Below, one piece after another: positions 23,649-61,790 of a DNA stretch of 64,000 bases. Where the stretch lies: NCBI GenBank assembly GCA_018970175.1, contig JAGWWV010000001.1, positions 29,605-93,604 on the forward strand, written 5' to 3'. Every line of letters begins with the position of its first letter. Position 1 is the first letter of the stretch. The notes below the pieces were generated by a model, which saw only the letters and a program-made list of their open reading frames with translations, had not been told where the DNA came from and did not search any database. Origin of the DNA: Acidobacteriota bacterium (lineage in GTDB: Bacteria > Actinomycetota > Acidimicrobiia > Acidimicrobiales > Ilumatobacteraceae). Made by a program: the position numbers and the translations under genes.

Positions 23649-23702
23649 GTTCACACCCCCACGTCTTTCTACCATCAACCGAACTTCGGCAAGACTGGGA
23701 CC

Positions 23703-25514
23703 ATGGGGGCAACAACGATGCAGAGTCGCTCGCCGCTCATCGGCACCGTCATCGCGGTGAATGCCTCTTCGGGCGACGCCGTGCGGGCGGGCCACGAGGT
23801 GGTCATTCTCGAATCGATGAAGATGGAACACCCCGTCGTCGCCGAGTCCGACGGAACCATCGCCGACATCGGTGTCGCCGTCGGTGACACCGTCGAAGAG
23901 AACCAGGTGCTCTTCACCCTTACCCCCGGCGCCATTGAGGCCGACCGGACCGTCGCCGGCCCCGGTACTTCGTCGACCGAGCGGGCCGACCTCGCCCGCT
24001 TCCAGGAACGTCGTCGCCTCACCACGGATGACGCGCGCCCTGCCGCCGTCGACAAGCGACGCGCCAAGGGCCAGCGCACCGCACGCGAAAATGTCGCCGA
24101 CTTGGTCGACCCCGGCTCGTTCCATGAAGTTGGCTCGTTCGCCGTCGCCGCCCAACGCCAACGTCGCAGCGCCGATGATCTGATGGTGAACACCCCGGCC
24201 GACGGTCTCGTCGGCGGAACCGCGACGCTCGACGGCAAACCAATTGCCGTCGCCTCGTACGACTACACGGTCCTTGCCGGAACCCAGGGCCTCATCAACC
24301 ACATCAAGAAGGACCGCCTCTTCGCCTTCACCGAAGAGTTGCGGCTCCCCTTCGTTCTCTTTGCCGAAGGCGGCGGTGGCCGACCGGGCGACACCGACTC
24401 GCACGGCGTCACCGGCATGGACTGCATGGCGTTCTCGCTCTTCGGTGCGCTGTCGGGTCTGGTGCCGCTTGTCGGCATCGCCTCGGGTTACTGCTTCGCG
24501 GGCAATGCCGCGTTGCTTGGTTGCTGCGACGTCATCATCGCGACGGAGAACTCGAACATCGGCATGGCCGGCCCCGCGATGATCGAAGGTGGCGGCCTCG
24601 GCCGTGTCGAACCCACGGCAATCGGCGACATCGACACCCAATCACGCAACGGTGTCGTCGATGTTCGCGTTGCCGATGAGGCTGCGGCGGTGAGCGCCGC
24701 CAAGCGGTACCTCAACTTCTTCCTGCACCGGCGCATCGAACCGAGACCGGGCAACGACGAAGCCCTGCGGGGCGTCGTCCCCGAACAACGCACGCGCGTG
24801 TATCCCGTGCGTGAGGCAATCACCCATCTCGTCGACGGCGCCGACTGGCTGGAACTTCGAGCCGACTTCGGGGTCGGCATCGTCACCGCCCTCGGCCGCA
24901 TCGGCGGCCATGCGGTGGGCATCATCGCCAACAACCCCGCACATCTTGGCGGCGCCATCGACAGCGACGCATCCGACAAAGCGTCTCGCTTCGTGCAACT
25001 CTGCGACGCCCACGACCTGCCGATCGTTTCGCTGTGCGACACGCCCGGCTTCATGGTCGGACCCGAGGCGGAAAAATCGGCCCAGGTACGCCACTTCGGT
25101 CGCATGTTCGTCGTCGCCGGCAGCATCACCGTCCCGTGGATCACCGTGGTCTTGCGCAAGTGCTACGGACTCGGTGCACAGGCAATGGCGGGTGGAACTC
25201 TTCACGGTCGGTACCCGACGTTGTCGTGGCCGACAGGTGAGTTCGGGGGCATGGGTCTCGAAGGTGCGGTGCGTCTTGGCTACCGCAAGGAAATCGAGGC
25301 CATCGCAGATCCGGTCGAGCGGCAAGCGCTCGAAGACAAGCTGATTGCAGCGGCCTACGAACGCGGCGGTGCACTGAACATCGCCGCACATGCCGAAATC
25401 GACGAGGTCATCGACCCCGCCGACACCCGCGCACGCCTCATTGCCTTGCTCGATGCCGCGCCCGTGCCACAACCACGTACCGGCAAGAAGCGCCCGATGA
25501 TCGATACATGGTGA
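23703..25514 (+). CDS. biotinyl-domain / carboxyltransferase fusion protein (acyl-CoA carboxylase beta-like)
   Basis: From the ATG at 23703 there is an N-terminal biotin-attachment domain (EVVILESMKMEHPV, MKM motif). It is followed by a ~520-aa carboxyl transferase domain (GGARIQE-type region replaced by FAEGGGGRPGD, later PIVSLCDTPGFMVG). The upstream 317 codons of the 920-aa ORF are shadow. Confidence 0.8.
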   Translation: MGATTMQSRSPLIGTVIAVNASSGDAVRAGHEVVILESMKMEHPVVAESDGTIADIGVAVGDTVEENQVLFTLTPGAIEADRTVAGPGTSSTERADLARFQERRRLTTDDARPAAVDKRRAKGQRTARENVADLVDPGSFHEVGSFAVAAQRQRRSADDLMVNTPADGLVGGTATLDGKPIAVASYDYTVLAGTQGLINHIKKDRLFAFTEELRLPFVLFAEGGGGRPGDTDSHGVTGMDCMAFSLFGALSGLVPLVGIASGYCFAGNAALLGCCDVIIATENSNIGMAGPAMIEGGGLGRVEPTAIGDIDTQSRNGVVDVRVADEAAAVSAAKRYLNFFLHRRIEPRPGNDEALRGVVPEQRTRVYPVREAITHLVDGADWLELRADFGVGIVTALGRIGGHAVGIIANNPAHLGGAIDSDASDKASRFVQLCDAHDLPIVSLCDTPGFMVGPEAEKSAQVRHFGRMFVVAGSITVPWITVVLRKCYGLGAQAMAGGTLHGRYPTLSWPTGEFGGMGLEGAVRLGYRKEIEAIADPVERQALEDKLIAAAYERGGALNIAAHAEIDEVIDPADTRARLIALLDAAPVPQPRTGKKRPMIDTW

Positions 25515-26887
25515 AAACCGTCAATACCGTCAATACGGCGAAGCGAATCTGCGTCACGCTCTGCGCGGCGATTCTTGCTGCGTCGTGCAGTTCGAGCCAA
25601 CCCACCACCTCGGAGCCGACCACAACGACCGCACTCGACTGGACCTCGTGCAACGGCGTCGAGTGTGCCGACCTCGACGTGCCATTCGCCTACGACGATC
25701 CCTCGCGCGGTACGTTCACGCTGAAGGTCAGCCGGCAGCGGGCGTTGAAGGCCGATCAACGCGTCGGCGTGCTGATCGTCAATCCGGGAGGGCCCGGTGG
25801 ACCCGGTGTCTCGTTGGCCCAGAATGCCGCGTTCTACTTCAGCCGTGACATCATCGACCGATTCGATATCGTCGCCTGGGATCCTCGAGGTACGGGTGTG
25901 TCGACCCCCGCAGTTGATTGCATCGACAACTACGACGACTACTTCACACGGCCCCTCGATGCGCAGACGGCGCAACGCTTCGTCGACGCCTGCACCGAAC
26001 GCTCGGGCGACGTACTCCCCTACGTCGGGACCGCGAACTCGGCACGTGACATCGATGCCTTGCGGCGTGCACTGGGTGAAGAATCGGTCTCGTACTTTGG
26101 GTTCTCCTACGGCGGGGTTCTCGGTCTCACGTGGCAGGGCCTTTTCCCCGAGACCGTGCGCGCGATGGTTCTCGACGCACCGCCCAACCCGGCTGCCAGC
26201 CGGGCGGAACGCATCGCGGCACAGGCCACTGTGTTCGAGTCGCTCCTCGACGAGTTCCTCGAACCACCCGGACGGATGGATGCGTGGAACGCGGTGATGG
26301 CATCGCCCCCGACTGGTATCACCGCCCAGATGGTGCTCACCGCCACGATTTCGGCGCTCTACGACACCGAATCTTGGGGTGAACTTGAAACCGCGCTGAC
26401 CGCTGCCTCTGCAGGTGACGGCTCGAAGATCCGCGCAATGTACGAGGGCTTCTACTACCAGGACGCGGGATTCGAGGACTTGCGCAACACCTTCGAGGCG
26501 TCCGTCGCCATTTCATGCGTCGACGACACGACTCGCACACCCATCGATGACCTGACGAAAGTTGCACCGCGTCTCCATGTATTTTTTGGCCCCGATGAAT
26601 TGTGCTCGCGCTGGCCCGCCGCCACTTCCGAGTCGTACGACCCGCCCGCGGCAGGCGCGACCCCCACGGTGATCATCGGCGCAACGAAGGATCCCGCGTC
26701 ACCTTTCGCCGGCGTTCGGGCCACCGCAATGGCTTCCGGAAACACCCGATTGATCACCGTCGAAGGAAACCGACATACCAGCTACTTCGGGGTCGACTGC
26801 GTCACGGCGCTGGTCGATTCGTATCTCATCGGCCTCACCGATCCGGGTGACACCACCTGCCCGCCGGGGGCAAAAATCAGCGAATGA
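25508..26887 (+). CDS. exported alpha/beta hydrolase (TAP/tripeptidyl-aminopeptidase-like, S33-type)
   Basis: The lipobox is LAASC-S, followed by a T-rich linker, the nucleophile elbow GFSYGG and a TAP-like C-terminal region. The ATG overlaps the previous stop (ATGGTGA). Confidence 0.8.
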   Translation: MVKTVNTVNTAKRICVTLCAAILAASCSSSQPTTSEPTTTTALDWTSCNGVECADLDVPFAYDDPSRGTFTLKVSRQRALKADQRVGVLIVNPGGPGGPGVSLAQNAAFYFSRDIIDRFDIVAWDPRGTGVSTPAVDCIDNYDDYFTRPLDAQTAQRFVDACTERSGDVLPYVGTANSARDIDALRRALGEESVSYFGFSYGGVLGLTWQGLFPETVRAMVLDAPPNPAASRAERIAAQATVFESLLDEFLEPPGRMDAWNAVMASPPTGITAQMVLTATISALYDTESWGELETALTAASAGDGSKIRAMYEGFYYQDAGFEDLRNTFEASVAISCVDDTTRTPIDDLTKVAPRLHVFFGPDELCSRWPAATSESYDPPAAGATPTVIIGATKDPASPFAGVRATAMASGNTRLITVEGNRHTSYFGVDCVTALVDSYLIGLTDPGDTTCPPGAKISE

Positions 26888-29800
26888 AGACCTGCACGGC
26901 CATCGACCGTCGGAGACCCGTCGTGTTGTTGCAGCAGCCGAGCACGTCGCCCGCAGACCAACCGTTGTCGCTGAGTCCGATTCCGCCCGACGTGTCGTCC
27001 GAACCCTTGTAGCCGTTCGGCCACAAGCCGCCGCCGTTTTCGTTCCACCCGAAGCCCCAACGCGCCTTACGGTTGTCATTCCAGTTGAATCCGTAGAAGC
27101 GGATATCGGCCTGCGACGACCAGATCGTGCCCCGGTAACCGTCGAAGAGAAGCGCGTCGGAGACGAATTGTTCGTCGGTCCCCTGGAACACGGAGAGAGC
27201 GGTCTTCGGCCCACTCGGCACCGATGTCTTCCACGTCCATCCGTAGTTGTGTCCGTCGACGGATCCACGTTCGGTCGCCCCGAACGACGACGTGTCGATG
27301 TCCGGGAAGATCGCGAGGAGTTCGGTGCCCCGCAGTTTGTTGAAGGTCGAGAACTTCGCATCGGACGACGTGGTGTTGGTGGAGCCTTCGTTCAGTGTGT
27401 TGGCCGTCGTCCAGTAGTTGGATGAGTACGGGAACGTCGTGCTGTTCTGCGCCGCCTTCATGATCATCGTCCAGCCACCACCGGCCATCGCGCTATCCAT
27501 CAGGCAGTAGGCCTGCGTCGGGACGATGACCCCGCCCGAGTTGACATTGATCGTGTAGACGCCGTTCGCGTTCGTTCCGGTCGTTTCCTTGATGTCCTTG
27601 CACGACTCGCGACGCTGCCACGACCGTACGGCCCGAACCTTGGCTGTCTGATCGATTGGGCTGGCTGAGGCGGTTCCGGACTGGTCGACGACGTGAGCTT
27701 GCCGAGACGTCATCGTGACGTCGAACGTCAGGATTGTGTGGTCCCACGCATAGTTTCCTGAACCGCGTCCGACGATGACATAGATCATCTCGCCGGCCGC
27801 GAGTGTCACGGACGAAGCAGTCGTAGTTGCAGTTGTGGTCACGCCCGAGCTGATTGAGCCACTGCCAAGGAGCTGATAATTCGTCTCACCCACAAGGCCA
27901 CGTTGGACCCAATAGTCGATTCCATCGGCGTTGTTGAACGGATACGCCAACTTGAGCCCCGCGGACAGATCGACCGTGATTCCCGAACCGGTCGTGTTCT
28001 TCCACGCAACGCCGACGCCGTAGCCGCTGTCGTCAGGATGAATGAGAATGCTGGGCCCGGTCATCGCGGAGCCGGACGGCGCAGTCGTCACGTTCTGGAC
28101 GTACGGATAGTTGGGACCGGCCCATTGCGTGCGGTTGTTGTCCCACTGAGGCTGATTCGGAATATTTTCGTTGCCCGCGGTCTGCCAGTCCGACAGCAGC
28201 GTTGCCGAAGTCCTTCCGGCGGGGACCTCGAAGTACTGCCAGGTGTTGTTCGACGACTGAGCCGTCGGTCCACTGACAAATCCACTTTGCACGCTAGACA
28301 CCGTCGGCAACCCGCTGGCACCGGACGAAGTCCAGTAGCTGCCCGTTGGCAACGTGATGTTCTTCGCCGCGAGATTGGTGATCGCAGTCTCAAGCTCGAG
28401 CTTCGACGGCAGATACCAGTCGGTCGTGGCACTCGACGGGAGCGAGGCGGTCTTCACCCAGACAGCCATGGTTGCGGGGACATAACCCGAGCCGGTACCG
28501 CTGCCGGTCACGTATCCATTCGAACCGCTGTGGTGCAAATAGAGAGCACTGAACGCTTGACTGTCCTCGTTCCAGTCGAGCTGCGGATTGATGCCAGGAT
28601 TCGAAACGAGACCATACGCGGATCCATAACGAACCCCGAACGTCTTGTTGCGCATGTACATCTGGGAAGGCAGCGACGACGCGCCCTTCAATTTGTTGAC
28701 TGTCACGAGGGACTGGTCGGCCGACGTTCCATTCAGCGAGAACGAAGAGGCCGAACCGTTGTAGACCGGGGGCGAGGACGTAGTCCCCGACAATGTCATC
28801 TGAGCAGCGCTCGGAAGCGCGAACGACACCGCGTTGTCGTAGGACATGATTCCACCAGTGGGCAATCCTCCGCCCGGGTTCATCCAAGAGATCACCATGT
28901 CGCTCGCACCCTGGATGGCGGAAAGAGCATTGAGATTGGCCGACCCCGTGCGGGTCGCGGCGTTGAAAGAACCGTTTGCAACGTTCCACTTGCCGAATGA
29001 GCCGTTCTCCCCGTACGCAACGAGTTTCCAACCGCCGCCCGCCGTCGACATGTCAACATAGGTCGTTCCGAGTCCACTCACCGCGGAGATGCCGGATGTT
29101 GTCGGCAGACCGGTGTTCGTCGCATAACCATCCGCTGCAGATGCCGCGGCACACGAACTACTTGCCGCCAAGATCGCCGACGTGTTCGCAGCGCCGGTCC
29201 CGATCGCCGTACCGGTCGTTGCCGAGGCAGCACTGTTGGGACACCACGTCGCTGACGTAGATGCGTCGGCAGCGGCGATCTCCATGAAGTCGAGGTCGGG
29301 GTACTGGTTGTTGGTATCGAGGAGGAAGACCGTTCCGCCACCCGGGCCCTCGTCACCGATTCGACACGTGCCACCGTCCTTGCAGAGCGCACCGACGGCC
29401 AGTTCGAAGGTCAGCGAGGCATTGGTCCAGTTCGCCCCGCCCGGCACCGACGCAGTGAGAATTGTGGAACCTGCGGCAAGGAGGTCGACCACGCCCGTTG
29501 TCGAGTTGATGGTTGCCACGGCACCATCACTGCTCGTGTAGGTCACCGATCCCGCACCGTTCGTGTTCGGTATCGCAGGGTTCATCGTGAAATTCGGATC
29601 GTCCGCGCGGTACGGACCGCCCGGAGCGGTGAATCCGGTCAGCGTGGGAGTCGCCTTTGTGACGGTGAACGACGCGGTCTGAGTCTTCACAAGATACGCG
29701 CCGTACGCAGGCTCGGTTGCTGTGAACGTGGTCGAACCGGCCCCCACGATCGTCACGCGACCGGAGTATTGGTCGATGGTCGCAACCGCCGTGTTGCTGC

Positions 29801-32800
29801 TGGAGTACTCGGTGACCGCGGGGTTCAGCGAAGTTGGCGCGGTGACGGAGAATGGCGCGGTTCCGAATACGTACGACGATGCGGGCAGCGCGAAGCCCGA
29901 CAGCGATGCATTGATGACGACGGAACCCTTCGCCGCGAAGGCGCGAATCGGCATGATTCCACGGAGATCGGTCTTCAGGGCGTCGTATCGAACTCCCGAA
30001 ACCAGGTCGACCGTGTAGGCGCGTGTGGCATTGACCTGATTCGACGCCCAGAACTCACCCGTTACCCCGGTCAAGAGTCCCGCATCGACCAGGTTGGTCT
30101 TGACGAGCTGCAACTCCGTCGGCGCGGGCAGGTACCAATCGGTCTTCATCCCACCCTGGAACAAGCGCGCCGTGTGTGCCGCGCTGCTGGTGCAATTCGT
30201 GAGGATTCCCCGCATGTTGAAGATGCCTTGGGCGTTGTCGGATGTGCCCGACAGCGACGTCGTGGCGGCGGCCGTGTTGCACCAGCTGGTGGTCCCGCCG
30301 ACGACCGCAACCTCGAGATAGTCGACACCGACGTAGTCGTCGTTCGTGTCGACGAAGAAGACCTTTCCGCCTCCTGGGCCGGTGTCTCCGATTGCACATG
30401 AGATACCGAGCTGACAGTCGGTGAGACTTCCGCCGACCGGTGGTGTCTCCGGTGCCACACACGCCCCGCCGTCGGCACAGGACCTCGCAACCGAGAGCGT
30501 GACACGACTGCTTGCCGCCTTCGCGGCTCCGGTGCCGCCCTGTGATGCGCCGAGAACGGTGGTTCCCGCCCCGGTGATCGTCACGACACCGGTACGAGCA
30601 TTCACCGTCGCGACGCCGGGGTTCGAGCTCACGTAGGAGATCGGTGTCGCCTCGCTTGTCGGAGCGAACGCGCGAATCGGACGAACGTAGCGATTGTCCC
30701 ATTTGCCCGCGTAGGTCGGGGTGTCCTGGCAGGGATGTTGCAGGTAGTGATAGTTCGCATCGAACTCGGTGGATGTCGAGTACCACTCGTCGCACGGCAG
30801 ATACCCGATGGTGTCGCGCTTGAGATAAACCTGCCGCATCTCCTCCAATGACGGCAGGTACCAATCCGACAGTCCACCGCCGTTGTAGGTCCGCGCCATC
30901 GTCGCAGCGCGGCTGATCGTCGACGACTGGGCGACGATTGCCTGTGAGTTTGCGAAGCCTGCACCGATTCCCACACCGCGCGCGGACGCACCGATGGCGA
31001 CGTTGGTGATTCCCGACCATGGTGCGCGCGGATCCTGATTTGCGCCGGACCAGGTCGCCGGCGCGGCTTCGAGATACTTGCACGACGAACCACACGCGGT
31101 ACCCGGCGCGGCAAAGCCCTTCGACACAAAGAAGACCCGACCACCACCGGGGCCGGTGTCACCCACGACGCACGGACCGCCCTGGGCGCACGTCACGGTT
31201 TCGATCGCCCGGCTCGATGTCGGCGCCGTGAGCGTGAACGAGGGGCTTGCCGTGGTGTAGTTCGAACCGGGCAGTGTGAGCGCGCCGAGGGTCGTCGACG
31301 CGGGTCCAGACCCGGCGAATGAATTGGAGACGTCGGTCGGCGTGTTGACGTTGCCCGACGTGATGTTGCCGATTTGGCCCCAATCGTTGTAGCCCCAACA
31401 CTTCATCGCATCGTTGGCGACGATCGCGCAGGTCGAATAGCCGTTCGATGCCGAGAGCTCGAAGACCCCCGAGGAGAGTCCGGATACATCAGTGGGAACG
31501 TAGCGACGTGTCGTCGTACCGTCCCCGAGTTCACCGCTGTCATTGCGGCCCCAACACTTGACACCGCCGCCCGTCGTGATCGCACACGTGTGGAGACCAC
31601 CTGCGACGACGCGCGCCACGCCCGTCGAGAGTCCGGTCGGGGTCGTCGGTGTGCTGCGGTCACTCGTCGTACCGTCGCCCAACTGGCCGTATCCGTTGTA
31701 GCCCCAACAACGCACACCACCTGTGTTCAACACCGCACACGAATGGTGGAAGCCGGCGGCAATGCCGACCGCACCGGAGAGTCCGCTGACCGTACGGGGC
31801 GTATAGCGAACCGTCGTGGTGCCGTCACCCAGGTTGCGCCAATCATTGCGACCCCAACACCGCACGGTTCCGTTCTCGAGAAGTGCGCACGAATACTCGT
31901 AACCGAGATCGATCTGAACGACCCCCGACGTGAGACCGACAACGTCGACGGGGGTCGTGCGGTTCTCGTTCGTACCATCACCCAACTGTCCGTAACCGTT
32001 GTAGCCCCAGCACTTGACTCCCCCGGCGGCGGTCAAGGCACACGTGTGCTGATAGCCGGCGTCGACTTGAACCACACCCGACGAAAGCCCCGTCACCGCG
32101 ACCGGGACGTAAGGCCGAACAGATGTGGTACCGAATCCGATCTGACCGTTGTCGTTCAAGCCCCAGCACACGACCCCTCCGCGGCTCGTCACTGCGCACG
32201 TGTGGTGATGTCCAACGGCGATCGACGCTGCGCCCGACCCGAGGTCGGTCACCGTTGTCGGGACCAAGCGACGCTCGGTCGTCGAGTTGCCAAGCTGACC
32301 CCAATCTCCGTTACCCCAACACTTCGCTTCACCGGCGGCGGTGATGCCGCACGATGTGTGGTACCCGGCACTCACCTGGACGTATTCGCTGTCGGGCACC
32401 CCGACACGTGCCAGAGACACCATTGCAGACTGCGTCGCCGTCGCGGGAAGGCTGGCCCTGACATAGGCGACACCCGTCCCGACGATTGAAATGGTGCGTG
32501 CAGTCGCATCGACGGTCGCAACCGCAGGGTTTGTGCTGCTGTACGTGATCGAGTCCGAACGGTTCGTCGTGGCAGCGGCGAACGAAACGTTTGTGTCACC
32601 GACGCGGAAGCGCTGCGTCGACAGGGTGACCGGCGAGAGCTGTGTTTCGGGATCCGTGGTGATGGTTGTCTTGATGCCGGTGACGCCCACCGGTGAATAC
32701 CGGTTCGTCGACGACTTGTCGCCGAGTTCGTTGCCGTCGTTTCGGCCCCAACACCACACCGCACCCTTCACCGAGAGCGCACAGGAGAAGCCGTACCCCG

Positions 32801-35800
32801 TGCTGAGGTCGCGAACGTCCGTGAGGTCGGCAACCGCCACGGGGGTCGTCGAATTCGAGGTGTTGCCGGTGGCGAGTTGTCCGTACCCGTTCCATCCCCA
32901 GCAGCGCACGGTTCCTGTCGAGAGTCGAGCACACACATGCTGGTAGCCGCCGGACACATCGATGGCGTTGGTGATCCCGGTGACGGGTACCGCCGTCGCA
33001 TATTGATTGCCGGTTCCGTTTCCGTTCTGACCGTTGGCGCCGTAGCCCCAGCACATCACACCGCCGGCGCCGGTGACCGCGCAAGCCGAATGACGAAGCA
33101 CGGAAATGCGAACAGCACCCGAGGTGATGCCGAGAACGTCGACGGGCGTGGTGCGCATCGTCGTCGTGCCGTCTCCCAGGTTGCTCCAGTCGTTGCGACC
33201 CCAGCACTTCGCTGCCCCGCTGACCGTTGTGGCGCAATAGAAGGTTTCGGTACCGGAAACGTCGGTGACGCCGCTCGTCAGGCTGGGAACGGGAACCGGG
33301 ACGTTCGAACTGGCGCCGGTTCCGTTGGCGAGTTCGCCGTATCCGTTGTGACCCCAACACGTCAATGCACCAGTCGCAAGAATCGCACAGGTTGCGTAGG
33401 CGGATGCCGCGATGTCGGTGGCGTTCGTGATTCCCGTGACCTGAACGGCCGTGTTGCTGTCGGTCGAGGTGCCGTTGCCGAGGTTTCCCCACGAGTTGCG
33501 ACCCCAACACCGAACCGTGCCGTTGGCGAGAACCGCGCAACTGTGCCAGTAGCCGGTGGCGATCTTCACGACGCCCGTCGACAGTCCCGTCACGGCAACC
33601 GGTGCCGACCTGCTGGTACGCGTACCGTCACCCAGCTGACCGAAGTCGTTGAATCCCCAGCAGACCACGCCGCCCTGGTCGGTGATGCCGCAGCTGTGGC
33701 GATCGCCGCTCTCGATGTTGACGACCGTTTCACCGTTGATCGTCAGAGTGGTGTTGACCCGTGACTCGGCAAACTCACCCGTCTCGGCCTGCACCGCGGT
33801 GATGGTCGCGGTACCCGCGGCCGCGACGCTGATGAGTCCTGTCGCGGGGTCCCATTTGGCGACGGCAGTGTTCGAGCTTTCGTACGACCACGCGCCGGGG
33901 CTGTCGGACGTGGGTGGCGTCGGGGTGAAGGGGGCCGAGGCGAAGGTGATACCGGTCGGAAGCGTGAATGACCCAACCGTCGCACGGCGCAAGACACGCA
34001 GATCGATCGACGTGCTGGTCGAGGCCCACGTTCCGCTCGCTGCCTGGGTGGCTGTCAATGTCGCGGTACCGCGCCCGACAACGGTGACCAGACCCGTCGT
34101 TGCATCAATGGTGGCAACAGACGTGTTGCTGCTCGAGTACGTGATCGCGCCGGGGCTGTTCGACGTGGGCAATGTCGGCGTGAATGGTGCATCACCTTCG
34201 GCCTTCGTCAGACCCATGCCGGCGAAGTAGTAGCCGGTGCCGTTGTAGATCGTGGTGTTGCTGCCCGGCGGGGTGAACCGCACGATGATCGCGTCGCCTC
34301 CGCCATTCTCACCGAACTGAATGCGAATCGGATAGAAGGTGCCCCCGACAAGCGTCGTCGTGTTGCAGATTTCCCGCATTCCGTGCAGGCCCGCATTGTT
34401 CACGAGACTGTTTGAGGTCGCGAAGCCGGCTTTTGCGTTCGGACCCAGCCAGAGATAGCTCGCATCATCGGAGTTGGTGCAGAACGTGTAGACGCCGGAG
34501 ATCGATGCCTTGAACGACCCCGTCCATTCCCAGCTGTAGAGGTCGGCGCTCGAGGTGAAGTTGGTGAAGTTGGTGATCTGGTTGGTTTCACCGTGCTTCG
34601 TGGCGGTGGCGAACCAGTTCACGTTGTCGTTGAAGTAGCCCACGTAGCGGGTGCCCTTCAGACCCGCGCCCGATCCGCTGTCGCCACCGAACGCCGTCAG
34701 TGTCGGCGTCACGCCGTTCACGACGAATACAGCGGTCACCGAGCCGGCGGCAAAGTTCGTCGTTGCAGCCTGAGAGGCCGTGATCGTCGCCGATCCGGTC
34801 CCGACGATCGTGATCGTCCGTGTTGAGGAGTTCACGGTGGCGATTGAGGTGTTGCTGCTGGAGTACGTGAACGCTCCGGTGCTGTTCGACGTCGGCGCAG
34901 TGAACGTGAAGGGCGCATCCCCGAAAGTCTTCGACGGCACGGACAGCGCTCCGATTGTCGGGTTGGCCGGAAGAACCTTCAATTCGGCGGTGACCGCCGC
35001 AGACGAGTGCATCGGGGTGGTCGCCTGGGTGGCCGTGATGATGGCCGTTCCCGGCACACCGATGGTCACTGCACCCGTGGACGAGTTGATGGACGCAACG
35101 GACGTGTTGTTCGAGGCCCAGGTCCATGTTCCACTGCTCGTCGAGTTTGGCGCGCTTATCGTGAAGCCGCCGCCGAGATAGAAACGGTCGGCCAGAACCA
35201 ATGGCGCAATCGTCGGAACCTGCTTCGAAACCGTGATCGTGGTGGTCGCCGAGGTTGCAGAAGTGAAGTTCGAATCAGCCGCCTTCGTGGCCGTGATGGT
35301 GCAACTGCCGCTTGCCGTCGTCACGAGAGACGTCCCGTTGACCGAACACCCGGCAGTTCCGGCACTGACGACAGTGAACGACATCGAGCCGGTTCCCGAT
35401 CCTCCGCTTGCCGCCAGCGCGAGGTTGATACCCGCGATGGCCGTCGTTGTCGAGATGACCACTGGCGACGACTGACTGATGCGGTTGAACGTGATCGTCG
35501 TGTTGGCCGAAGTCGATTCGTCGTAGTTGCGATCGGCTGCCTTTGTCGCAGCAATGGTGCACGTGCCGCCCGACGTCGTTGTCAACGTCGCGCCGCTGAC
35601 CACACAATTGGCACTGCCGGCATCGACAACGCGGTAGGAGATGGCACCGGTGCCCTGACCACCGATGGTTGTGAGGCTGAGGGGCGCACCGAACGTTCCC
35701 GACGTCGACGTGATGGCAAGTCCCGAGCCGGCACCATTTGCCAACTGGGCAATTTCTGTCGCGCCAAGCGAACGGTTGTAAATGGTGACTTCATCGAGCA

Positions 35801-38800
35801 GGCCGGAGAACCATTCGTTGCCAACCGTCTTGCCGACCGCAAAGTTCTCTGCGGTGGCATTGTTAGGTCCCCGGTTCGTGTCGGAAACCGCGACGACCCC
35901 GTTGACCCAGATTCTTCGTGTCGTACCGTCATATGTGGCAACGACATGCGCCCACGGCCCGTTGAGGGAGATCTCGTTCGGACGACCTCCCATGATGAGG
36001 TCATTGCCCCACCAGTAGTTGTGCAGTCCACCATCGCTGTGCAGTCGGAAAGCATTCGTACGGTTACCGCTTCCATTTCCATAGGCGCCCCAGCCGACGA
36101 TGCCGCGTTGCCCGAAAGCCGACGGCTTGATCCATGCCGACACGGTGTACGAGGAGTTACCGACGGGAAGTCCCGTGATCGAACCACTGGGGAGGTACAA
36201 ATAGGCGCCGTATCCATTCAGCGATACGGCACCACCGATCTTCCCGCTCGACGTCCACGTCGGCCCACCGGTTTCGGTGAGGTTCCCGGTCCCCGCCGCG
36301 TTGACACCGAGAGTGTTTGCCGAGTCGAACGACCAACGAGCCACCAAGCCGTCGACCAACGTGCTCTGCTGGGCGACACGGCCAACGGTCAACGTCGCGG
36401 TGATCGATGCGGCCGCATAGTTCGCCGTTGCAGCCTGATTCGCCCGAATCTGAACGGTTCCGGCTTCGCCGAGGGTCACCTGGCCGGCAGAGTCGACCTT
36501 TGCAACGTTCGGATTCGATTCCGTACCGGCGACGATTTCGTACGTGAAAGCTCCCGATGAAGTCGACGTGGGCGCCGTCAAACCGAATACTGCGTCACCG
36601 AACTTTTTAGCGGGAATCACGAAATTCGACAGGGTGGGCGCGAGTTTGTCGATCGTCAACTTGGCGGTCGTCGAGTCGGCCGCGTAGAGGTCGGTTGCCG
36701 CCTGCATAGCTGTGATGGTCACGGTGCCGGCCTTGAGAATCGTCACGCGACCGGCAGCCGACGCGGTTGCAATCGTTGGATCATCGACCGTGTACGAGAA
36801 GTCACCCTTCGAATTCGACTTCGGTGCGACGAGGTCGAACGCTTCGTCGCCGAAGGTTTTGTTTGCGATTGTCCACGTGAACGTTGGCACAGCCTTCTTC
36901 ACCGTGACGCTGACGGCGACCGAGCCCGCCTCGTAATTGGCCGATGACTCCTGTCGAGCGGTCAACGTGGCTGTTCCGGTGCCGATGATCTTGACCAGTC
37001 CCGTCTTCGCGTCGACCGAGAAGATGTCGGACTTGTCGGTCGAGTAGGAAAACGCCGCGGGGCTGGTGGAGGTGGGCTTCAGTGTGAAGTCGGCATCGCC
37101 GTACACCTTGTCGGCCACGAGCAGGTCCGAGATGGTGGGAGTCGCCTTGGCAACCGTCACCTTCGCGGAAATCGAGCCCGCGCTGAAGCTGGTGGATGCA
37201 GCCTGCGAGGCGGTGATCGTGGCCGTGCCCGCACTGATGATGCTGACCCTGCCGTCGCGCTCGCCAACCGTCACGACCTTGGAGTCGCTTGATGTGTACG
37301 TGATGGCACCGGGTGCATTCGACTTCGGCGCAGCCAGATCGAACGGCGCATCACCGAAGGTCTTTGCGACATCCTGGAATTCCGTCAGCACCGAACTTGC
37401 CTGTGCGACGACGACTCGGAACGTCGTTGTCGCCGCAAGCCAGTCGTTCGTCGTTGCCTGCGACACCGTGATTGTCGCTGTTCCGGCAGAGCGCACCGCA
37501 GCGCGGGCACCGGAAATGTTCACGACGTTCGTGTCGGACGACGTGTACGTGAATGCACCACGACTGTCGGATGTCGGTCGCGGTAGATCGAAGTCGGCGT
37601 CGAGGAACGACTTGGAGACGTCGGCGGGGGCCGTCAGGGTCGGGGCGCCCTTTCGGACCGTCACGACAAAGCTGTCGGTGGTACCGACGAAGTCGTCATT
37701 CGCGGCCTGCGTGACGGTGATGGTCGCGCGACCGGCACCGGAGACAAACCAGCGCCCGGTTGTCTTCGATTGCTTCACCACGTCTTCATCACTGCTCACG
37801 AATGTGAAGGCGCCCGGGGAGGTGGATGTGGGCTTCGCAATCGTGAATGAATCGTCACCAAAGGTCTTGATGATGTCCTTGAGGGAGGAATTTTCGGGAG
37901 TCGCCTTTGCGACGATCAGGGTCGCCGAGATCGTCGCGGCCTCGAAACCACGGACCGCCGCTTGCGTGGCGGTGATCGAGGTATTTCCCGCGCCGACGAT
38001 CGTCACGCGACCGGTGGTTGCATTCACCGTCGCCACGTCGGTGCGACTCGATGAGTACCTGAACCCGCCGGGGCTGTTCGAATCGGGTGGGTCGAGGGTG
38101 AACGCGTCGTCACCGAAGGTCTTGGTCGAGATACGGAAGCCGGAAAGGGTCGGCTTGACGACTGCAGGGACGGTCGTCGGCGTCGCTCCGGCTGCAGTGA
38201 CCGAGCGCGCAACGGTCGTTGTCGGGAGGGCCGCGTTACGCGTCTGGACCGTGGATGCAGTTGGGGCGTTCGCAGGCAGCGTCGTTGTCGGGAGGGCCGC
38301 ATTACGCGTCTGGACCGTGGATGCAGTTGGGGCGTTCGCAGGCAGCGTCGTTGTCGGGAGAGCCGCATTGCGTGTCTGCACAGTTGACGGAGTTTCGCCA
38401 CGAGGTGTCGACGTCGTTGTTGCGGCCGCAATCTCCTTCGCGCCCGTGGCCGTGGGAACAGTTGTCGTCGGCGCGACATAGGCCTCGTCGGTCTTGTAGT
38501 TCGGGTTGTTCAGGTTGCGATCTTCCATCTTGGGCAACGCTTCGATCGCCTTGCTCTCGAGTGCCGGCGGGAGTACGACTTCAACCTTGTTCAGATTCAA
38601 CGCTGAGGCGTCAACGATGGTTTGAGTTTTCGTTCCGTCCGAGGCGATCTCGGTCTTTTGCACTTCACCGGTCGACGATGCTTCGAGCACGGTGACACCG
38701 CCGGCTGCATCGGCCTTCACCTGCACGGCCGGAGTGTCAACGGTGACTTGTTGCTGAATCACCTCACCGTTTGCGGTGGTGACCTGAACGGCAAGAGTTC

Positions 38801-40262
38801 CACCACTGGACCCCAACTCGACCGATGGGCCGGACGCATTGGCCACCAGGTTCCCCGATGCGAGAGTCAGATCGACGTTCGGGTCGCTCGACTTGATGGA
38901 ACGGGCTCCAACTTCAACCGGCTTGTCCTTCGAACCCGGCGTCGAGAACTGGGCGACACCGCCGGGCGTCACGGCAAATACCGATGCCGCGCCGCCGAAG
39001 AGAAGCTTCGCCAAGGAGCCCCCGTTGTCAACCGGTGTCGAAGCAGTCGACGCCACGGTGGTTGTGGTCACGATCTTCGGCCTCTGGCCGTCGCTCACGA
39101 ACGCATCGAGCCGCGGTGCCGGCAGGCCGGCAGTTGCCTCGTCGCCCGTCGTTGACGGTGCCGCCGAAGAACCATTCTCGAGAATGTCATTTGGAATGGT
39201 GATCATGAAGTCGTAGGACGACCGCTCGGTTGCCCGCGGCGCGAGACGTGTGATGACCACACCGCCCTTGATGGGGCGCGCCGCCGCACCGTCGCTGTTC
39301 GTCGCCTGCGTCGGCGACACCGCGCCAGCCGGGGTTTCGACCGACCAATCGAGATTGTCGGTTCGTACCAACATCGTCGTCGCCTGAACCTTGGTCTCGT
39401 CACCACAGAATGGGCATGTCCCCTCACGCGCCTCGAATGGCGTCAGATCCATGTCAACGGCTCCACCCGACCAGATGTTGGGGTCGTTGGCCGGATCATC
39501 CCCTGCGAACGAGAACGACCATTTGTCATTCGCCAGATCGACGTCGACGTAACGATTGCGTCCGGGCCAGTTCGAGTCGTACACCATGATGCGAGCAACG
39601 TCGGGCGTTGGATACTCGATTGCGTAGGGCAGGATCGCGTGACCACCGGACTCGACGTAGACGCCGAGGGTGTACTCCAACTTGTCACTGGCGAACGACC
39701 GCTTCAACTCGTCGACTTTTTCTTTGAGTGATGCCTTCGTCCACTTCTGGATCGACTCTTGCACTTCGGGAACGAACTGTGTCGCGAAAGCTCGCATCAC
39801 CGCGCGGATCTCTTCCTCCTGCGACGGAAGCTTCACCGTCTCGGGAAGTTCGGCTTTGTTGAAGCGCGCGGACGCGAGTGCGACGAGACCTTCACAGTGG
39901 CCGGTCGCACGTGCTTGATTGACCATGCGCGCCCATGCCGCAGCCTCGGCCGTGAGTGTGCAGGGATCGGCGACACCATCGACGCACACCTCGGGCCCCG
40001 CGCCGAACATCGAAACAAGATCGGCCGTATCGAAGTTGAGGTCAGGGAACGTCGCAGACGGGAAGTTGGGAAATGCCCATCCGTTCAATTGAGGTTGCAT
40101 TTTTGTTGCAACCGCACCCGTTGGTGCCGGAGCCGAGTTCTTCGCCTGGCTCGCGCCGTCACCGCCACCCTGGGACGAACCACCGCCGCCACATGCAGCA
40201 AGGACGAGAAGACACACGGCGATGAGCGCTGCAGTCGCGCGCCGTCGTGCTTCCGATTCCAT
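26877..40262 (-). CDS. giant exported mosaic surface protein (4461 aa)
   Basis: This is a single uninterrupted ORF with the lipobox LVLAAC-GGGG.
Domains recognised by motif, in order:
- an unknown ~640-aa N-terminal region;
- at least 15 Ig-like Big_2-type modules (KTFGDxxFxL...PGAFTYSSSNTSVATV...G.VTIVGAGTATITA);
- LamG/ConA-like (LVARWSFD...LLDEVTIYNRSL);
- PA14 (GLKGTRYVGYF...);
- two blocks of seven RCC1 repeats (CWGxNxxGQLGDG);
- three DUF1566-like units (GDTGPGGGxVFF...DWYLPSxxEL...PIRAF);
- a fibrinogen-like C-terminus (GVYTI...YCLMD...GGGWTMI). Confidence 0.9.
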   Translation of the reverse strand: MESEARRRATAALIAVCLLVLAACGGGGSSQGGGDGASQAKNSAPAPTGAVATKMQPQLNGWAFPNFPSATFPDLNFDTADLVSMFGAGPEVCVDGVADPCTLTAEAAAWARMVNQARATGHCEGLVALASARFNKAELPETVKLPSQEEEIRAVMRAFATQFVPEVQESIQKWTKASLKEKVDELKRSFASDKLEYTLGVYVESGGHAILPYAIEYPTPDVARIMVYDSNWPGRNRYVDVDLANDKWSFSFAGDDPANDPNIWSGGAVDMDLTPFEAREGTCPFCGDETKVQATTMLVRTDNLDWSVETPAGAVSPTQATNSDGAAARPIKGGVVITRLAPRATERSSYDFMITIPNDILENGSSAAPSTTGDEATAGLPAPRLDAFVSDGQRPKIVTTTTVASTASTPVDNGGSLAKLLFGGAASVFAVTPGGVAQFSTPGSKDKPVEVGARSIKSSDPNVDLTLASGNLVANASGPSVELGSSGGTLAVQVTTANGEVIQQQVTVDTPAVQVKADAAGGVTVLEASSTGEVQKTEIASDGTKTQTIVDASALNLNKVEVVLPPALESKAIEALPKMEDRNLNNPNYKTDEAYVAPTTTVPTATGAKEIAAATTTSTPRGETPSTVQTRNAALPTTTLPANAPTASTVQTRNAALPTTTLPANAPTASTVQTRNAALPTTTVARSVTAAGATPTTVPAVVKPTLSGFRISTKTFGDDAFTLDPPDSNSPGGFRYSSSRTDVATVNATTGRVTIVGAGNTSITATQAAVRGFEAATISATLIVAKATPENSSLKDIIKTFGDDSFTIAKPTSTSPGAFTFVSSDEDVVKQSKTTGRWFVSGAGRATITVTQAANDDFVGTTDSFVVTVRKGAPTLTAPADVSKSFLDADFDLPRPTSDSRGAFTYTSSDTNVVNISGARAAVRSAGTATITVSQATTNDWLAATTTFRVVVAQASSVLTEFQDVAKTFGDAPFDLAAPKSNAPGAITYTSSDSKVVTVGERDGRVSIISAGTATITASQAASTSFSAGSISAKVTVAKATPTISDLLVADKVYGDADFTLKPTSTSPAAFSYSTDKSDIFSVDAKTGLVKIIGTGTATLTARQESSANYEAGSVAVSVTVKKAVPTFTWTIANKTFGDEAFDLVAPKSNSKGDFSYTVDDPTIATASAAGRVTILKAGTVTITAMQAATDLYAADSTTAKLTIDKLAPTLSNFVIPAKKFGDAVFGLTAPTSTSSGAFTYEIVAGTESNPNVAKVDSAGQVTLGEAGTVQIRANQAATANYAAASITATLTVGRVAQQSTLVDGLVARWSFDSANTLGVNAAGTGNLTETGGPTWTSSGKIGGAVSLNGYGAYLYLPSGSITGLPVGNSSYTVSAWIKPSAFGQRGIVGWGAYGNGSGNRTNAFRLHSDGGLHNYWWGNDLIMGGRPNEISLNGPWAHVVATYDGTTRRIWVNGVVAVSDTNRGPNNATAENFAVGKTVGNEWFSGLLDEVTIYNRSLGATEIAQLANGAGSGLAITSTSGTFGAPLSLTTIGGQGTGAISYRVVDAGSANCVVSGATLTTTSGGTCTIAATKAADRNYDESTSANTTITFNRISQSSPVVISTTTAIAGINLALAASGGSGTGSMSFTVVSAGTAGCSVNGTSLVTTASGSCTITATKAADSNFTSATSATTTITVSKQVPTIAPLVLADRFYLGGGFTISAPNSTSSGTWTWASNNTSVASINSSTGAVTIGVPGTAIITATQATTPMHSSAAVTAELKVLPANPTIGALSVPSKTFGDAPFTFTAPTSNSTGAFTYSSSNTSIATVNSSTRTITIVGTGSATITASQAATTNFAAGSVTAVFVVNGVTPTLTAFGGDSGSGAGLKGTRYVGYFNDNVNWFATATKHGETNQITNFTNFTSSADLYSWEWTGSFKASISGVYTFCTNSDDASYLWLGPNAKAGFATSNSLVNNAGLHGMREICNTTTLVGGTFYPIRIQFGENGGGDAIIVRFTPPGSNTTIYNGTGYYFAGMGLTKAEGDAPFTPTLPTSNSPGAITYSSSNTSVATIDATTGLVTVVGRGTATLTATQAASGTWASTSTSIDLRVLRRATVGSFTLPTGITFASAPFTPTPPTSDSPGAWSYESSNTAVAKWDPATGLISVAAAGTATITAVQAETGEFAESRVNTTLTINGETVVNIESGDRHSCGITDQGGVVCWGFNDFGQLGDGTRTSRSAPVAVTGLSTGVVKIATGYWHSCAVLANGTVRCWGRNSWGNLGNGTSTDSNTAVQVTGITNATDIAASAYATCAILATGALTCWGHNGYGELANGTGASSNVPVPVPSLTSGVTDVSGTETFYCATTVSGAAKCWGRNDWSNLGDGTTTMRTTPVDVLGITSGAVRISVLRHSACAVTGAGGVMCWGYGANGQNGNGTGNQYATAVPVTGITNAIDVSGGYQHVCARLSTGTVRCWGWNGYGQLATGNTSNSTTPVAVADLTDVRDLSTGYGFSCALSVKGAVWCWGRNDGNELGDKSSTNRYSPVGVTGIKTTITTDPETQLSPVTLSTQRFRVGDTNVSFAAATTNRSDSITYSSTNPAVATVDATARTISIVGTGVAYVRASLPATATQSAMVSLARVGVPDSEYVQVSAGYHTSCGITAAGEAKCWGNGDWGQLGNSTTERRLVPTTVTDLGSGAASIAVGHHHTCAVTSRGGVVCWGLNDNGQIGFGTTSVRPYVPVAVTGLSSGVVQVDAGYQHTCALTAAGGVKCWGYNGYGQLGDGTNENRTTPVDVVGLTSGVVQIDLGYEYSCALLENGTVRCWGRNDWRNLGDGTTTVRYTPRTVSGLSGAVGIAAGFHHSCAVLNTGGVRCWGYNGYGQLGDGTTSDRSTPTTPTGLSTGVARVVAGGLHTCAITTGGGVKCWGRNDSGELGDGTTTRRYVPTDVSGLSSGVFELSASNGYSTCAIVANDAMKCWGYNDWGQIGNITSGNVNTPTDVSNSFAGSGPASTTLGALTLPGSNYTTASPSFTLTAPTSSRAIETVTCAQGGPCVVGDTGPGGGRVFFVSKGFAAPGTACGSSCKYLEAAPATWSGANQDPRAPWSGITNVAIGASARGVGIGAGFANSQAIVAQSSTISRAATMARTYNGGGLSDWYLPSLEEMRQVYLKRDTIGYLPCDEWYSTSTEFDANYHYLQHPCQDTPTYAGKWDNRYVRPIRAFAPTSEATPISYVSSNPGVATVNARTGVVTITGAGTTVLGASQGGTGAAKAASSRVTLSVARSCADGGACVAPETPPVGGSLTDCQLGISCAIGDTGPGGGKVFFVDTNDDYVGVDYLEVAVVGGTTSWCNTAAATTSLSGTSDNAQGIFNMRGILTNCTSSAAHTARLFQGGMKTDWYLPAPTELQLVKTNLVDAGLLTGVTGEFWASNQVNATRAYTVDLVSGVRYDALKTDLRGIMPIRAFAAKGSVVINASLSGFALPASSYVFGTAPFSVTAPTSLNPAVTEYSSSNTAVATIDQYSGRVTIVGAGSTTFTATEPAYGAYLVKTQTASFTVTKATPTLTGFTAPGGPYRADDPNFTMNPAIPNTNGAGSVTYTSSDGAVATINSTTGVVDLLAAGSTILTASVPGGANWTNASLTFELAVGALCKDGGTCRIGDEGPGGGTVFLLDTNNQYPDLDFMEIAAADASTSATWCPNSAASATTGTAIGTGAANTSAILAASSSCAAASAADGYATNTGLPTTSGISAVSGLGTTYVDMSTAGGGWKLVAYGENGSFGKWNVANGSFNAATRTGSANLNALSAIQGASDMVISWMNPGGGLPTGGIMSYDNAVSFALPSAAQMTLSGTTSSPPVYNGSASSFSLNGTSADQSLVTVNKLKGASSLPSQMYMRNKTFGVRYGSAYGLVSNPGINPQLDWNEDSQAFSALYLHHSGSNGYVTGSGTGSGYVPATMAVWVKTASLPSSATTDWYLPSKLELETAITNLAAKNITLPTGSYWTSSGASGLPTVSSVQSGFVSGPTAQSSNNTWQYFEVPAGRTSATLLSDWQTAGNENIPNQPQWDNNRTQWAGPNYPYVQNVTTAPSGSAMTGPSILIHPDDSGYGVGVAWKNTTGSGITVDLSAGLKLAYPFNNADGIDYWVQRGLVGETNYQLLGSGSISSGVTTTATTTASSVTLAAGEMIYVIVGRGSGNYAWDHTILTFDVTMTSRQAHVVDQSGTASASPIDQTAKVRAVRSWQRRESCKDIKETTGTNANGVYTINVNSGGVIVPTQAYCLMDSAMAGGGWTMIMKAAQNSTTFPYSSNYWTTANTLNEGSTNTTSSDAKFSTFNKLRGTELLAIFPDIDTSSFGATERGSVDGHNYGWTWKTSVPSGPKTALSVFQGTDEQFVSDALLFDGYRGTIWSSQADIRFYGFNWNDNRKARWGFGWNENGGGLWPNGYKGSDDTSGGIGLSDNGWSAGDVLGCCNNTTGLRRSMAVQVFIR
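31330..32400 (-). repeat. RCC1 repeat block 2 (seven blades) within the giant CDS
   Basis: Seven consecutive ~50-aa units each contain CWG(x)N(x)(x)GQ(L/I)G(D/N): AKCWGNGDWGQLGNS ... MKCWGYNDWGQIGNI. Confidence 0.8.
32680..33735 (-). repeat. RCC1 repeat block 1 (seven blades) within the giant CDS
   Basis: Seven units run from VVCWGFNDFGQLGDG to VWCWGRNDGNELGDK. Confidence 0.8.
38215..38388 (-). repeat. 66-nt coding tandem repeat (22 aa, two near-identical copies plus a degenerate third)
   Basis: Copies at 38215..38280 and 38281..38346 differ at one nucleotide, and a third diverged copy follows. They encode ASTVQTRNAALPTTTLPANAPT x2, then ASTVQTRNAALPTTTVARS. Confidence 0.9.
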
Positions 40263-40268
40263 GTGAGG

Positions 40269-40274
40269 ATTTTA
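40269..40274 (-). promoter_or_regulatory. candidate -10 hexamer (TAAAAT) for a leaderless transcript of the giant gene
   Basis: The minus strand reads TAAAAT-cctcac-ATG. The hexamer ends 6 nt before the start codon, no SD is present, and the 74-nt spacer is the most AT-rich stretch in the locus. Confidence 0.3.
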
Positions 40275-40336
40275 TGGCAGTTTTGGTGACTATTTCAGGT
40301 CGCCCCCCACCATTTCTTCGATAGAAAACCTTTAGT

Positions 40337-43919: not shown

Positions 43920-43942
43920 GCGACTACCAGTGGTGAGTCGGA

Positions 43943-55505: not shown

Positions 55506-55626
55506 TTGGACTTGCCCCCAAGGTAATGAGAGACCCCATTATTGACCAGTCAGGTGACACATCCTTCAATCGCCGTTTTCCGGTGATTCATTCTGGACCG
55601 GTCGCGCCGGTGATGCAGGCTCGGGG

Positions 55627-59327: not shown

Positions 59328-59338
59328 GACGTGGGATG

Positions 59339-60983: not shown

Positions 60984-60986
60984 CGA

Positions 60987-61751: not shown

Positions 61752-61761
61752 TCACTCAGTG

Positions 61762-61779: not shown

Positions 61780-61790
61780 GCCTCGGTCGC

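Follow-up and report, generated by a model that had tools for sequence, protein, structure and literature searches.

The ice-binding RTX adhesin MpIBP of Marinomonas primoryensis is a giant modular adhesin with Ig-like (immunoglobulin-like) extenders and distal sugar-binding modules, PA14 among them, and adhesins of this type are type-1-secreted RTX proteins held in the Gram-negative outer membrane. The gene described here, a single ATG-to-stop open reading frame (ORF) at 26877..40262 on the minus strand of a 64,000-nucleotide stretch of contig JAGWWV010000001.1 (the window), encodes a 4461-aa protein (the giant protein) that belongs among the giant modular surface adhesins, an already known kind: it is a very long single chain with many tandem Ig-like (Big-type) spacers and distal ligand-binding modules including PA14, and it, too, is proposed to let a planktonic bacterium attach itself to surfaces or to other cells. 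At the same time, it carries a Sec/SPII (signal peptidase II) signal in a monoderm actinobacterium, has no RTX repeats, begins with a base that is predicted to be papain-like and displays far more kinds of binding modules than MpIBP. What is new here is the unannotated family of this base, or head, which structural modelling suggests is probably papain-like, and the nested insertions in the giant protein.

Individual modules of the giant protein also have described relatives. The two seven-repeat propellers are 40–58% identical to thousands of RCC1-repeat proteins of public genomes and metagenomes. Secreted bacterial proteins of this type (ATS1-type, “alpha-tubulin suppressor-like”) mostly have the propeller as their principal domain, along with FG-GAP, fn3 or Calx-beta, whereas here two propellers are beads in a much larger mosaic. 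The C-terminus shares its Cys...Cys...GGGWT fibrinogen-like opening segment with the intelectins or X-type lectins (XEEL 4wmo, 7e1e) and with GGGWT_bact, while the Ca2+/diol-binding part of the intelectins is unmatched in it. Lcl of Legionella is the only characterised Lcl_C/DUF1566 member; its C-terminal domain, of C-type-lectin-like fold, is a binder of sulphated glycosaminoglycans, and the authors of that work regard a generic role for DUF1566 as unclear (PMC11162425). Lcl forms trimers carried by a collagen stalk, whereas the three units matching or resembling Lcl_C in the giant protein would be monomeric beads in one chain, with N-terminal Cys pairs, and the third of them, unlike Lcl, is split by two foreign modules. 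A survey of giant genes (10.1101/2023.11.21.568195) discusses giants made of RCC1 only, from Oscillospiraceae, as well as another kind of giant in actinobacteria, but not this architecture, and no paper linking Ilumatobacteraceae with giant proteins was found in the literature searched.

It is proposed, with moderate confidence, that the gene encodes a lipid-anchored, wall-spanning surface fibre displaying many modules of glycan-binding type. Acylated Cys24 would hold the N-terminus at the outer face of the cytoplasmic membrane, where the base, composed of a papain-like Cys123-His208-Asp229 domain of ~300 aa and a beta-rich domain of ~150 aa, would lie beside the membrane, and a Thr/Pro-rich linker would cross the cell wall. 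The following ~3,750 residues would project outward, seventeen Ig-like spacers presenting the modules of ligand-binding type: LamG, PA14/GLEYA, two RCC1, three C-type-lectin-like Lcl_C, two nested modules and a terminal intelectin/fibrinogen-like domain. Such a fibre would probably bind multivalently, its targets being polysaccharides or glycoconjugates carried by particles, algae or other cells, or else polymers in solution. With the base constant and the tail rebuilt by module shuffling and insertion, each genome would possess several different binding repertoires.

An alternative is that the ORF does not encode one functional protein, being either a pseudogene in decay or a chimera that arose when repeated Ig modules were assembled. 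Assemblies typically break at sequences such as the repeated Big_2 modules and the 66-nt tandem repeat, and the Logan contigs do break at three sites (32013-32151, 34605-34665 and 38265-38331). However, contigs of the public run X1 with overlapping ends tile positions 26000-41000, and thereby the whole gene, with 0 mismatches, and break only at internal repeats. Independent metagenome-assembled genomes (MAGs) among the loci of GTDB genomes hold collinear orthologues, with 88.7% identity across 3698 aa in L002, 84.8% across 3700 aa in L001, 69% across 2967 aa in L009 and 75.6% across 2254 aa in L003, these alignments covering the first ~3,700, ~3,700, ~3,000 and ~2,250 aa, respectively, and ending only where the fetched DNA ends. 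The 10 kb upstream of the gene are syntenic in L001-L003. This alternative is also opposed by the diverged population X4, in which the indels are all frame-preserving (-1/+1 within 6 nt, -6 and -66), and by a gene-like GC content at third codon positions (0.75, typical for genes of the window). So, the orthologues, the upstream synteny, the X1 tiling and the frame-preserving X4 indels together exclude a chimera or a pseudogene, to which we assign next to no probability; the ORF is real and a single gene.

The N-terminus of the giant protein, MESEARRRATAALIAVCLLVLAAC, contains the positively charged n-region MESEARRR, the hydrophobic h-region AALIAVCLLV and the canonical lipobox L-A-A-C24 of a Sec/SPII signal. 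Among 30 members of the head family nearly every one has a Cys aligned with Cys24, and the Gly-rich stretch after it is also conserved. Judging by this signature, the protein is probably lipidated at Cys24, and its surface exposure and its passage through the wall are presumed. The linker (Table 1) holds a 66-nt tandem repeat at 38215-38378 (2.5 copies, 95% matches by Tandem Repeats Finder, TRF) that codes for the 22-aa unit STVQTRNAALPTTTLPANAPTA. A contig of the freshwater run X4 omits exactly one 66-nt unit (38235->38302), and the copy number of the linker repeat therefore varies between populations.

Table 1 Modules of the giant protein from its N-terminus to its C-terminus, genes of the same cluster and relatives with the same head (HMM, hidden Markov model; FReD, fibrinogen-related domain)
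Feature	Residues or length (aa)	Position in window	Strand	Basis or content
Lipoprotein signal peptide	1-24	40191..40262	-	lipobox LAAC with Cys24, read from translation
Conserved head domain	52-345	39228..40109	-	C123, H208, D229, N231; predicted papain-like fold
Beta-rich domain	415-560	38583..39020	-	after head in nearly all family members
Thr/Pro/Ala-rich linker	597-703	38154..38474	-	holds 22-aa repeat; translation and TRF
Seven tandem Big_2-like Ig modules	704-1295	36378..38153	-	Pfam Big_2; self-built HMM, E 1e-34 to 1e-38 each
LamG/ConA-like	~1303-1510	35733..36356	-	Laminin_G_3 match aa 1350-1505
Two divergent Cys-containing Ig-like and two Big_2-like modules	1518-1680 and 1683-1850	34713..35711	-	self-built HMM; Pfam Big_2
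PA14/GLEYA	1867-2000	34263..34664	-	Pfam PF07691/PF10528
Two Big_2-like modules	2016-2177	33732..34217	-	Pfam and self-built HMM
RCC1 seven-repeat propeller 1	2178-2535	32658..33731	-	WD40_RLD 229.9 bits; 7 RCC1 stretches
Big_2-like spacer	2541-2623	32394..32642	-	Pfam and self-built HMM
RCC1 seven-repeat propeller 2	2625-2985	31308..32390	-	WD40_RLD 358.4 bits; 7 RCC1 stretches
Lcl_C unit 1, partial Ig, Cys-rich linker, Lcl_C unit 2	3024-3200, 3197-3260, (linker), 3283-3445	29928..31193	-	
Two Big_2-like modules	3454-3625	29388..29903	-	Pfam and self-built HMM
Lcl_C unit 3, split	3627-3713 / 3945-3985 / ~4192-4215	27618..29384	-	HMM of units 1 and 2
Insert A	3714-3944	28431..29123	-	independent module within Lcl_C unit 3
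Insert B	3986-4191	27690..28307	-	second independent module within Lcl_C unit 3
Fibrinogen-related/intelectin-like domain	4216-4461 (246 aa)	26880..27617	-	NCBIfam GGGWT_bact
PAP2 phosphatase-family protein		40337-41668	same as giant gene	
FG-GAP/ASPIC protein		42168-44084	same as giant gene	
Second giant secreted ORF	3328	43943-53929	-	apparent N-terminal signal peptide
L033	3470			Big_2, PA14/GLEYA, two RCC1, Lcl_C, FReD
L023	2880			theme as in L033, without detected FReD
L016	1751			Big_2 and RCC1
L014	1724			Big_2, PA14 and Flg_new
L015	1559			Big_2 and PA14
L005	1958			Big_2, insert B and two LamG
L026	1823			SUEL lectin and F5/8 type C
L059	1747			Lcl_C, fn3 and FBA
L010	1498			Big_2 array and FReD only

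For the stalk and the binding-type modules (aa 597-3625), searches with Pfam and NCBIfam profiles bore out nearly all of the domains, in the same order, that a first-pass annotation made from the letters alone had assigned to this ORF. Its nucleotide coordinates for the Big_2 array, LamG and PA14 were accurate within a few codons; the seven Big_2-like modules, for example, had been placed at ~36380-38140, and an HMM built from them delimits nt 36378-38153. Pfam Big_2 (PF02368) reaches 138.6 bits against a cut-off of 22.8 in 10 stretches, and the self-built HMM detects 17 Ig-like modules in the giant protein, which act as spacers between the other domains. Laminin_G_3 (PF13385) matches with E 1.3e-22 and 81 bits (cut-off 27.6) over profile positions 2-151 of 151. 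The PA14/GLEYA domain exceeds the thresholds of both families (GLEYA, 54.6 bits vs 26.2; PA14, 42.9 bits vs 24), and an SDD motif is visible in it at aa 1931-1933. Both of the RCC1 propellers that had been named consist of seven repeats and lie above the WD40_RLD cut-off of 150 bits (RCC1-like propeller, PF25390/PF00415). As for the three DUF1566-like units that had been proposed, the first and the second were recovered, since a segment scan gives two stretches of Lcl_C (PF07603 = DUF1566), the best of them in unit 1 (aa 3113-3197), with a marginal 36.1 bits vs 34.9 for the whole protein; the third is split by two inserts and was seen with an HMM of units 1 and 2, not with Pfam.

Homology searches were run on three sub-regions of the giant protein, namely the head and others that include the RCC1/Lcl_C part. 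In the latter search 7,977 of the 8,000 candidates that were scored reached E<=1e-20; generic bacterial RCC1 proteins dominated it, and it carries no architecture information. The best matches listed belonged to public collections of genomes and metagenomes, and those few with an organism name were bacterial. GGGWT_bact, which matches the C-terminus, is also an NCBI bacterial family, and the description of the mosaic as partly eukaryote-like thus says little. A diversity-generating retroelement acting on the Lcl_C units was considered as well and rejected: no Y[AVLIMC]DD motif occurs in any frame open for >=200 aa in the 64-kb window, nor is there any repeat of the Lcl_C coding regions outside the giant gene in it. 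With neither a reverse transcriptase motif nor a template repeat in the window, such an element is therefore not involved.

The first ~640 residues, which the same annotation had passed over as an unknown head, comprise a conserved domain predicted to be papain-like and a beta-rich domain, and they define a family. Of the 8,000 candidates scored in a word-indexed search with the first 600 aa, 337 are relatives with E <= 0.001, and the 120 listed ones are all at E <= 1e-99. None of the relatives in this search has a Pfam domain in the head region, and the few that are named by organism come from MAGs labelled Actinobacteria, Actinomycetota or Ilumatobacteraceae, bar one labelled Acidobacteria. 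A profile of aa 52-306 compared with 1.84 billion representative proteins matched 1,748 clusters (50% identity) at E<=1e-3, 300 of them at E<=1e-30. The GTDB species genomes encode the head at 181 loci, of which the best 80 all lie in freshwater MAGs of Acidimicrobiia/Ilumatobacteraceae type, and many genomes contribute 2-4 of the 80. No second head paralogue was found within the window. Ten divergent members gave no Pfam family, and no source names them otherwise than as “hypothetical protein”. The titles “uncultured Bifidobacterium sp.” or “Bifidobacterium breve” stand on a number of GTDB representative MAGs with the head family (L002, L004, L008, L010, L013, L023, L029, L040, L045, L047, L060, L066 and L068); on freshwater MAGs of Acidimicrobiia type these are apparently taxonomic mislabels.

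Two alignments, of 30 and of 60 head-family members, show no variation at C123, H208, D229 and N231; other residues invariant in the 30-member alignment include C93, C101, N115, R118, G121, G125, G207, Y228, S230 and W232. C93 and C101 probably form a disulphide, and residues 283-286 of the head make up a CPFC motif. In 29 divergent relatives (27-42% identity) H208, D229 and N231 remain invariant, and position 123 is Cys in 28 and Ser in one. The sole exception, the 894-aa P0233, reads GHSEG in place of GHCEG and keeps the His, the Asp and the Asn; one natural Cys-to-Ser member is consistent with a nucleophile at this position. The AlphaFold2 model of the 600-aa head and beta-rich region has a mean predicted local distance difference test score (pLDDT) of 83.8, and that of aa 45-345 of 86.5. 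In the predicted head C123 opens the helix 123-135, H208 lies within the strand 206-219 and D229 follows the strand 222-228, which is the papain-like geometry, with Cys at a helix N-terminus and His and Asp on adjacent strands. When the isolated 301-aa head was compared with the PDB by Foldseek, the 13 best matches were all cysteine peptidases (IdeS/Mac-1, IdeC, Treponema TDE0362, SpeB and staphopain), with AvrRpt2 ranked lower, while the 600-aa model gave only weak propeller-like noise from its beta half. The assignment of the head as a papain-like Cys-His-Asp domain is thus a well-motivated prediction, because of the Foldseek matches and the motif geometry and not of sequence profiles.

With the clan CA peptidases IdeS/Mac-1 (C66), SpeB (C10) and staphopain (C47) the head as predicted has in common the Cys at the start of a helix, packed on a sheet that carries the His and the Asp ~21 residues further on. 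It shows no detectable sequence similarity to these enzymes (Foldseek E 6e-3 to 0.2, template modelling (TM) score 0.2-0.27), and unlike them it has an extra helical bundle between the Cys and the His, is probably lipid-anchored, is fused to adhesin-type tails and is peptidase-like by prediction. The beta-rich domain that follows is modelled with pLDDT >90 as ~14 consecutive strands and has only weak beta-propeller-like Foldseek matches (E>0.01). It is possible, if rather doubtful, that the head founds an undescribed family of lipid-anchored papain-like Cys-His-Asp enzymes that serve as the universal base for a combinatorial display of lectin-type modules.

ORFs starting with this head range from ~540 aa, with the head, the beta domain and a short Thr/Pro tail, to >3,600 aa. 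Many members are head-only lipoproteins of 540-800 aa, so the head must do something by itself. One candidate for this function is that of an active surface cysteine peptidase, tethered to the cell and targeted by lectins, with the tail capturing glycoproteins, wall debris or algal exopolymers for cleavage and uptake. Such a role would agree with the head being the only constant part and occurring alone in so many members, with the Cys, His, Asp and Asn that are invariant or nearly so, including the Cys-to-Ser member, and with the secreted bacterial cysteine peptidases among the fold matches. But the head sits by the anchor, before the Thr/Pro linker, probably under or within the wall and, by the count of domains, up to ~100 nm from the distal modules, and membership in a peptidase family is established by no profile; we consider this role unlikely. 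Among possible roles of the head, enzymatic action or attachment at the wall or membrane, shared by the entire family, is ranked first, exo-peptidase action on captured material second and a non-catalytic scaffold third; any catalytic activity is suggested by the model and the conserved residues.

Between its third DUF1566-like unit and the fibrinogen-like C-terminus the first-pass annotation had placed a beta-rich region of unknown kind. The HMM of Lcl_C units 1 and 2 matches twice in this part of the protein, at aa 3627-3713 (profile positions 2-103, E 1e-14) and at 3945-3980 (positions 107-143, E 2e-5), and the closing segment of the unit, “...VRAVRSW”, is found at ~4192-4215. This third Lcl_C unit, which Pfam does not detect, aligns with the equivalent unit of L033, which is unbroken and directly followed by the FReD. 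Insert A is absent from the homologues P0121 and P0122, in which the alignment jumps from residue 3717 of the giant protein to 3947 across one residue, and L033 lacks both inserts. The split HMM match together with these relatives therefore indicates that the region is two independent modules nested in a probable Lcl_C unit. It is a tidy case, found in nature, of domains being inserted into a fold of C-type-lectin-like kind.

Pfam and PDB profiles gave no match to either insert, and both recur elsewhere. Insert A is 55-59% identical to the N-terminal domain of otherwise unrelated 459-902-aa proteins (P0123-P0130) that continue with Gly_rich_2, and insert B is 56% identical to a module beside LamG in the paralogue L005 (aa 1328-1534). 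The 604-aa protein P0131, in a record labelled as a Verrucomicrobia MAG, has a relative of insert B at aa 1-175 and one of insert A at aa 274-494, in the opposite order; the two inserts therefore travel together outside Actinobacteria. The GGGW motif of insert A raised the possibility of a second, degenerate fibrinogen-like domain, which was rejected at a hhalign probability of 0.2 against the FReD.

The fibrinogen-like C-terminus of the earlier description stands as far as its opening segment is concerned. NCBIfam GGGWT_bact matches aa 4220-4267 with 46.8 bits (cut-off 30, E 2.2e-12), and PDB profiles of the serum lectin 7e1e (E 2.6e-5) and of Xenopus XEEL 4wmo (E 3e-3) match the domain. Pfam Fibrinogen_C stays below its threshold in the giant protein (14.2 vs 22 bits, profile positions 4-56 of 221), and a full-length FReD including the ligand-binding P subdomain is not found there, while the 60% identical homologue P0122 passes Fibrinogen_C with 25.2 vs 22 bits.

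Several observations weigh against the proposed glycan-binding fibre and its papain-like base. The intelectin alignments span only the first ~95 residues of the C-terminal domain, without the known ligand-binding part. The lectin-type names of the tail are family labels, the RCC1 propellers and Big_2 modules are generic scaffolds, and Lcl_C unit 1 barely passes its cut-off. On the side of the head, the Foldseek scores are weak (best E 5.8e-3, prob 0.97, TM ~0.22), and neither the head nor its divergent relatives gave any Pfam, NCBIfam or PDB sequence match, so that no profile links the family to a peptidase; the head profiles A1 and A7 likewise gave no meaningful match when compared with the PDB by sequence profile. 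Moreover, an extended fibre puts the base far from the distal modules, and how the two might cooperate is not obvious. No clearly RNA-derived run was found for the gene, only three runs of unknown type with ~25% of its words.

The glycan-binding fibre gains from comparison with its relatives. The first-pass annotation knew of no such architecture; four or more related MAGs have this order collinearly, and close variants occur in L033 and L023, so the architecture is recurrent and uncharacterised. Tail lengths in the head family run from 0 to >3,700 aa with varied lectin-type content (Table 1), as judged by Pfam scans of the loci, with the FReD of L033 and L010 taken from alignment to the giant protein. 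The mosaic does not stand alone, since genomes hold 2-4 paralogues that share this head and differ in their shuffled tails. No longer or more elaborate variation on this recurring theme is known than the giant protein, which is thus no isolated case. Head-family members swap tail modules by shuffling and insertion. The lectin-type character that had been read into the tail is strengthened by paralogues that add SUEL, F5/8 type C, FBA and a second LamG, and the repeated recruitment of lectin folds (LamG, PA14/GLEYA, Lcl_C, intelectin-like, SUEL, discoidin and FBA) supports glycan recognition. Glycan binding by the giant protein itself is suggested by these family names; the host-matrix recognition offered alongside it has no support in a planktonic freshwater organism.

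The giant gene is the last of a same-strand cluster in which the 3328-aa giant ORF is followed by the FG-GAP/ASPIC and PAP2 genes (Table 1). The only Pfam matches of the 3328-aa ORF are two K319L-like PKD domains, the remainder being unannotated and beta-rich. A sigma-70-like pair lies at 40269-40298 (-), with CTGAAA, an 18-nt spacer and TAAAAT, and 7 nt separate the end of its -10 box from the ATG; it is a consensus match only, 1 found vs 0.3 expected. With the -10 box this close and no Shine-Dalgarno sequence before the ATG of the giant gene, an own leaderless transcript is possible.

The locus varies between relatives and populations. In the relative L007 (VGAC01000013.1) the match to window positions 55624-64000 passes almost directly into the head of the giant gene, and the 15-kb block (window ~40305-55624) with the PAP2, FG-GAP and second giant genes is missing; this block looks like a flexible genomic island. 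Nucleotide identity to L001/L002 is 77-83% inside the giant gene vs 84-87% upstream. In the X21 population most of the gene is present at 95-99% likeness, with almost no contigs over the last 2.5 kb (window 26501-29005), where matches at >=95% likeness are missing. This population therefore either lacks the C-terminal end, which comprises both inserts and the fibrinogen-like domain, or has a different one. The block missing in L007, the lower identity inside the gene and the gap in X21 are signs of a flexible, fast-evolving surface locus.

The same variation, together with the several shuffled-tail paralogues per genome, would suit a tail that serves as a hypervariable protective coat, altering what phages or grazers see instead of binding nutrients, on a base whose papain-like domain (amidase or transpeptidase-like) takes the stem peptides of peptidoglycan as its substrate and so inserts or attaches the fibre. 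The position of the head next to the membrane and ahead of a linker of wall-spanning type would also fit. However, the head has no similarity in Pfam to the NlpC/P60, sortase or L,D-transpeptidase families, and the tail is made of binding-type modules, not of a self-assembling S-layer lattice; we regard this combination as quite improbable and retain the multivalent glycan-binding fibre as the preferred reading.

The host is a planktonic freshwater bacterium of Acidimicrobiia/Ilumatobacteraceae type. The sequence was found mainly in freshwater, reservoir, drinking-water and estuary metagenomes, and “soil metagenome” is the label of the three runs nearest to it, X1-X3. To our knowledge, almost no Acidimicrobiia of Ilumatobacteraceae type have been cultured. 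They recur in lake, reservoir, estuary and drinking-water communities, and the giant gene is found in such runs. Two to four very large surface-protein paralogues among the best-matching loci of many genomes are a large investment for a bacterium, and the family offers a direct lead to how these organisms may attach to, or harvest, polymers, algae and particles; it may also bear on surface variation under phage or grazer pressure. If the proposal is true, shuffled and mutually inserted lectin-type modules would give each cell a small repertoire of glycan-binding fibres. The head, with ~300 well-predicted residues and four conserved candidate catalytic positions, could define a new peptidase-like family, and if the base is catalytic, in wall attachment, fibre release or processing of captured substrate, it would represent a new envelope system in widespread lake bacteria.

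Additionally, a 920-aa ORF at window positions 22752-25514 (+) combines a ~320-aa N-terminal part without a Pfam match with a biotinyl/lipoyl carrier (aa 326-390) fused to a carboxyltransferase (aa 436-902).

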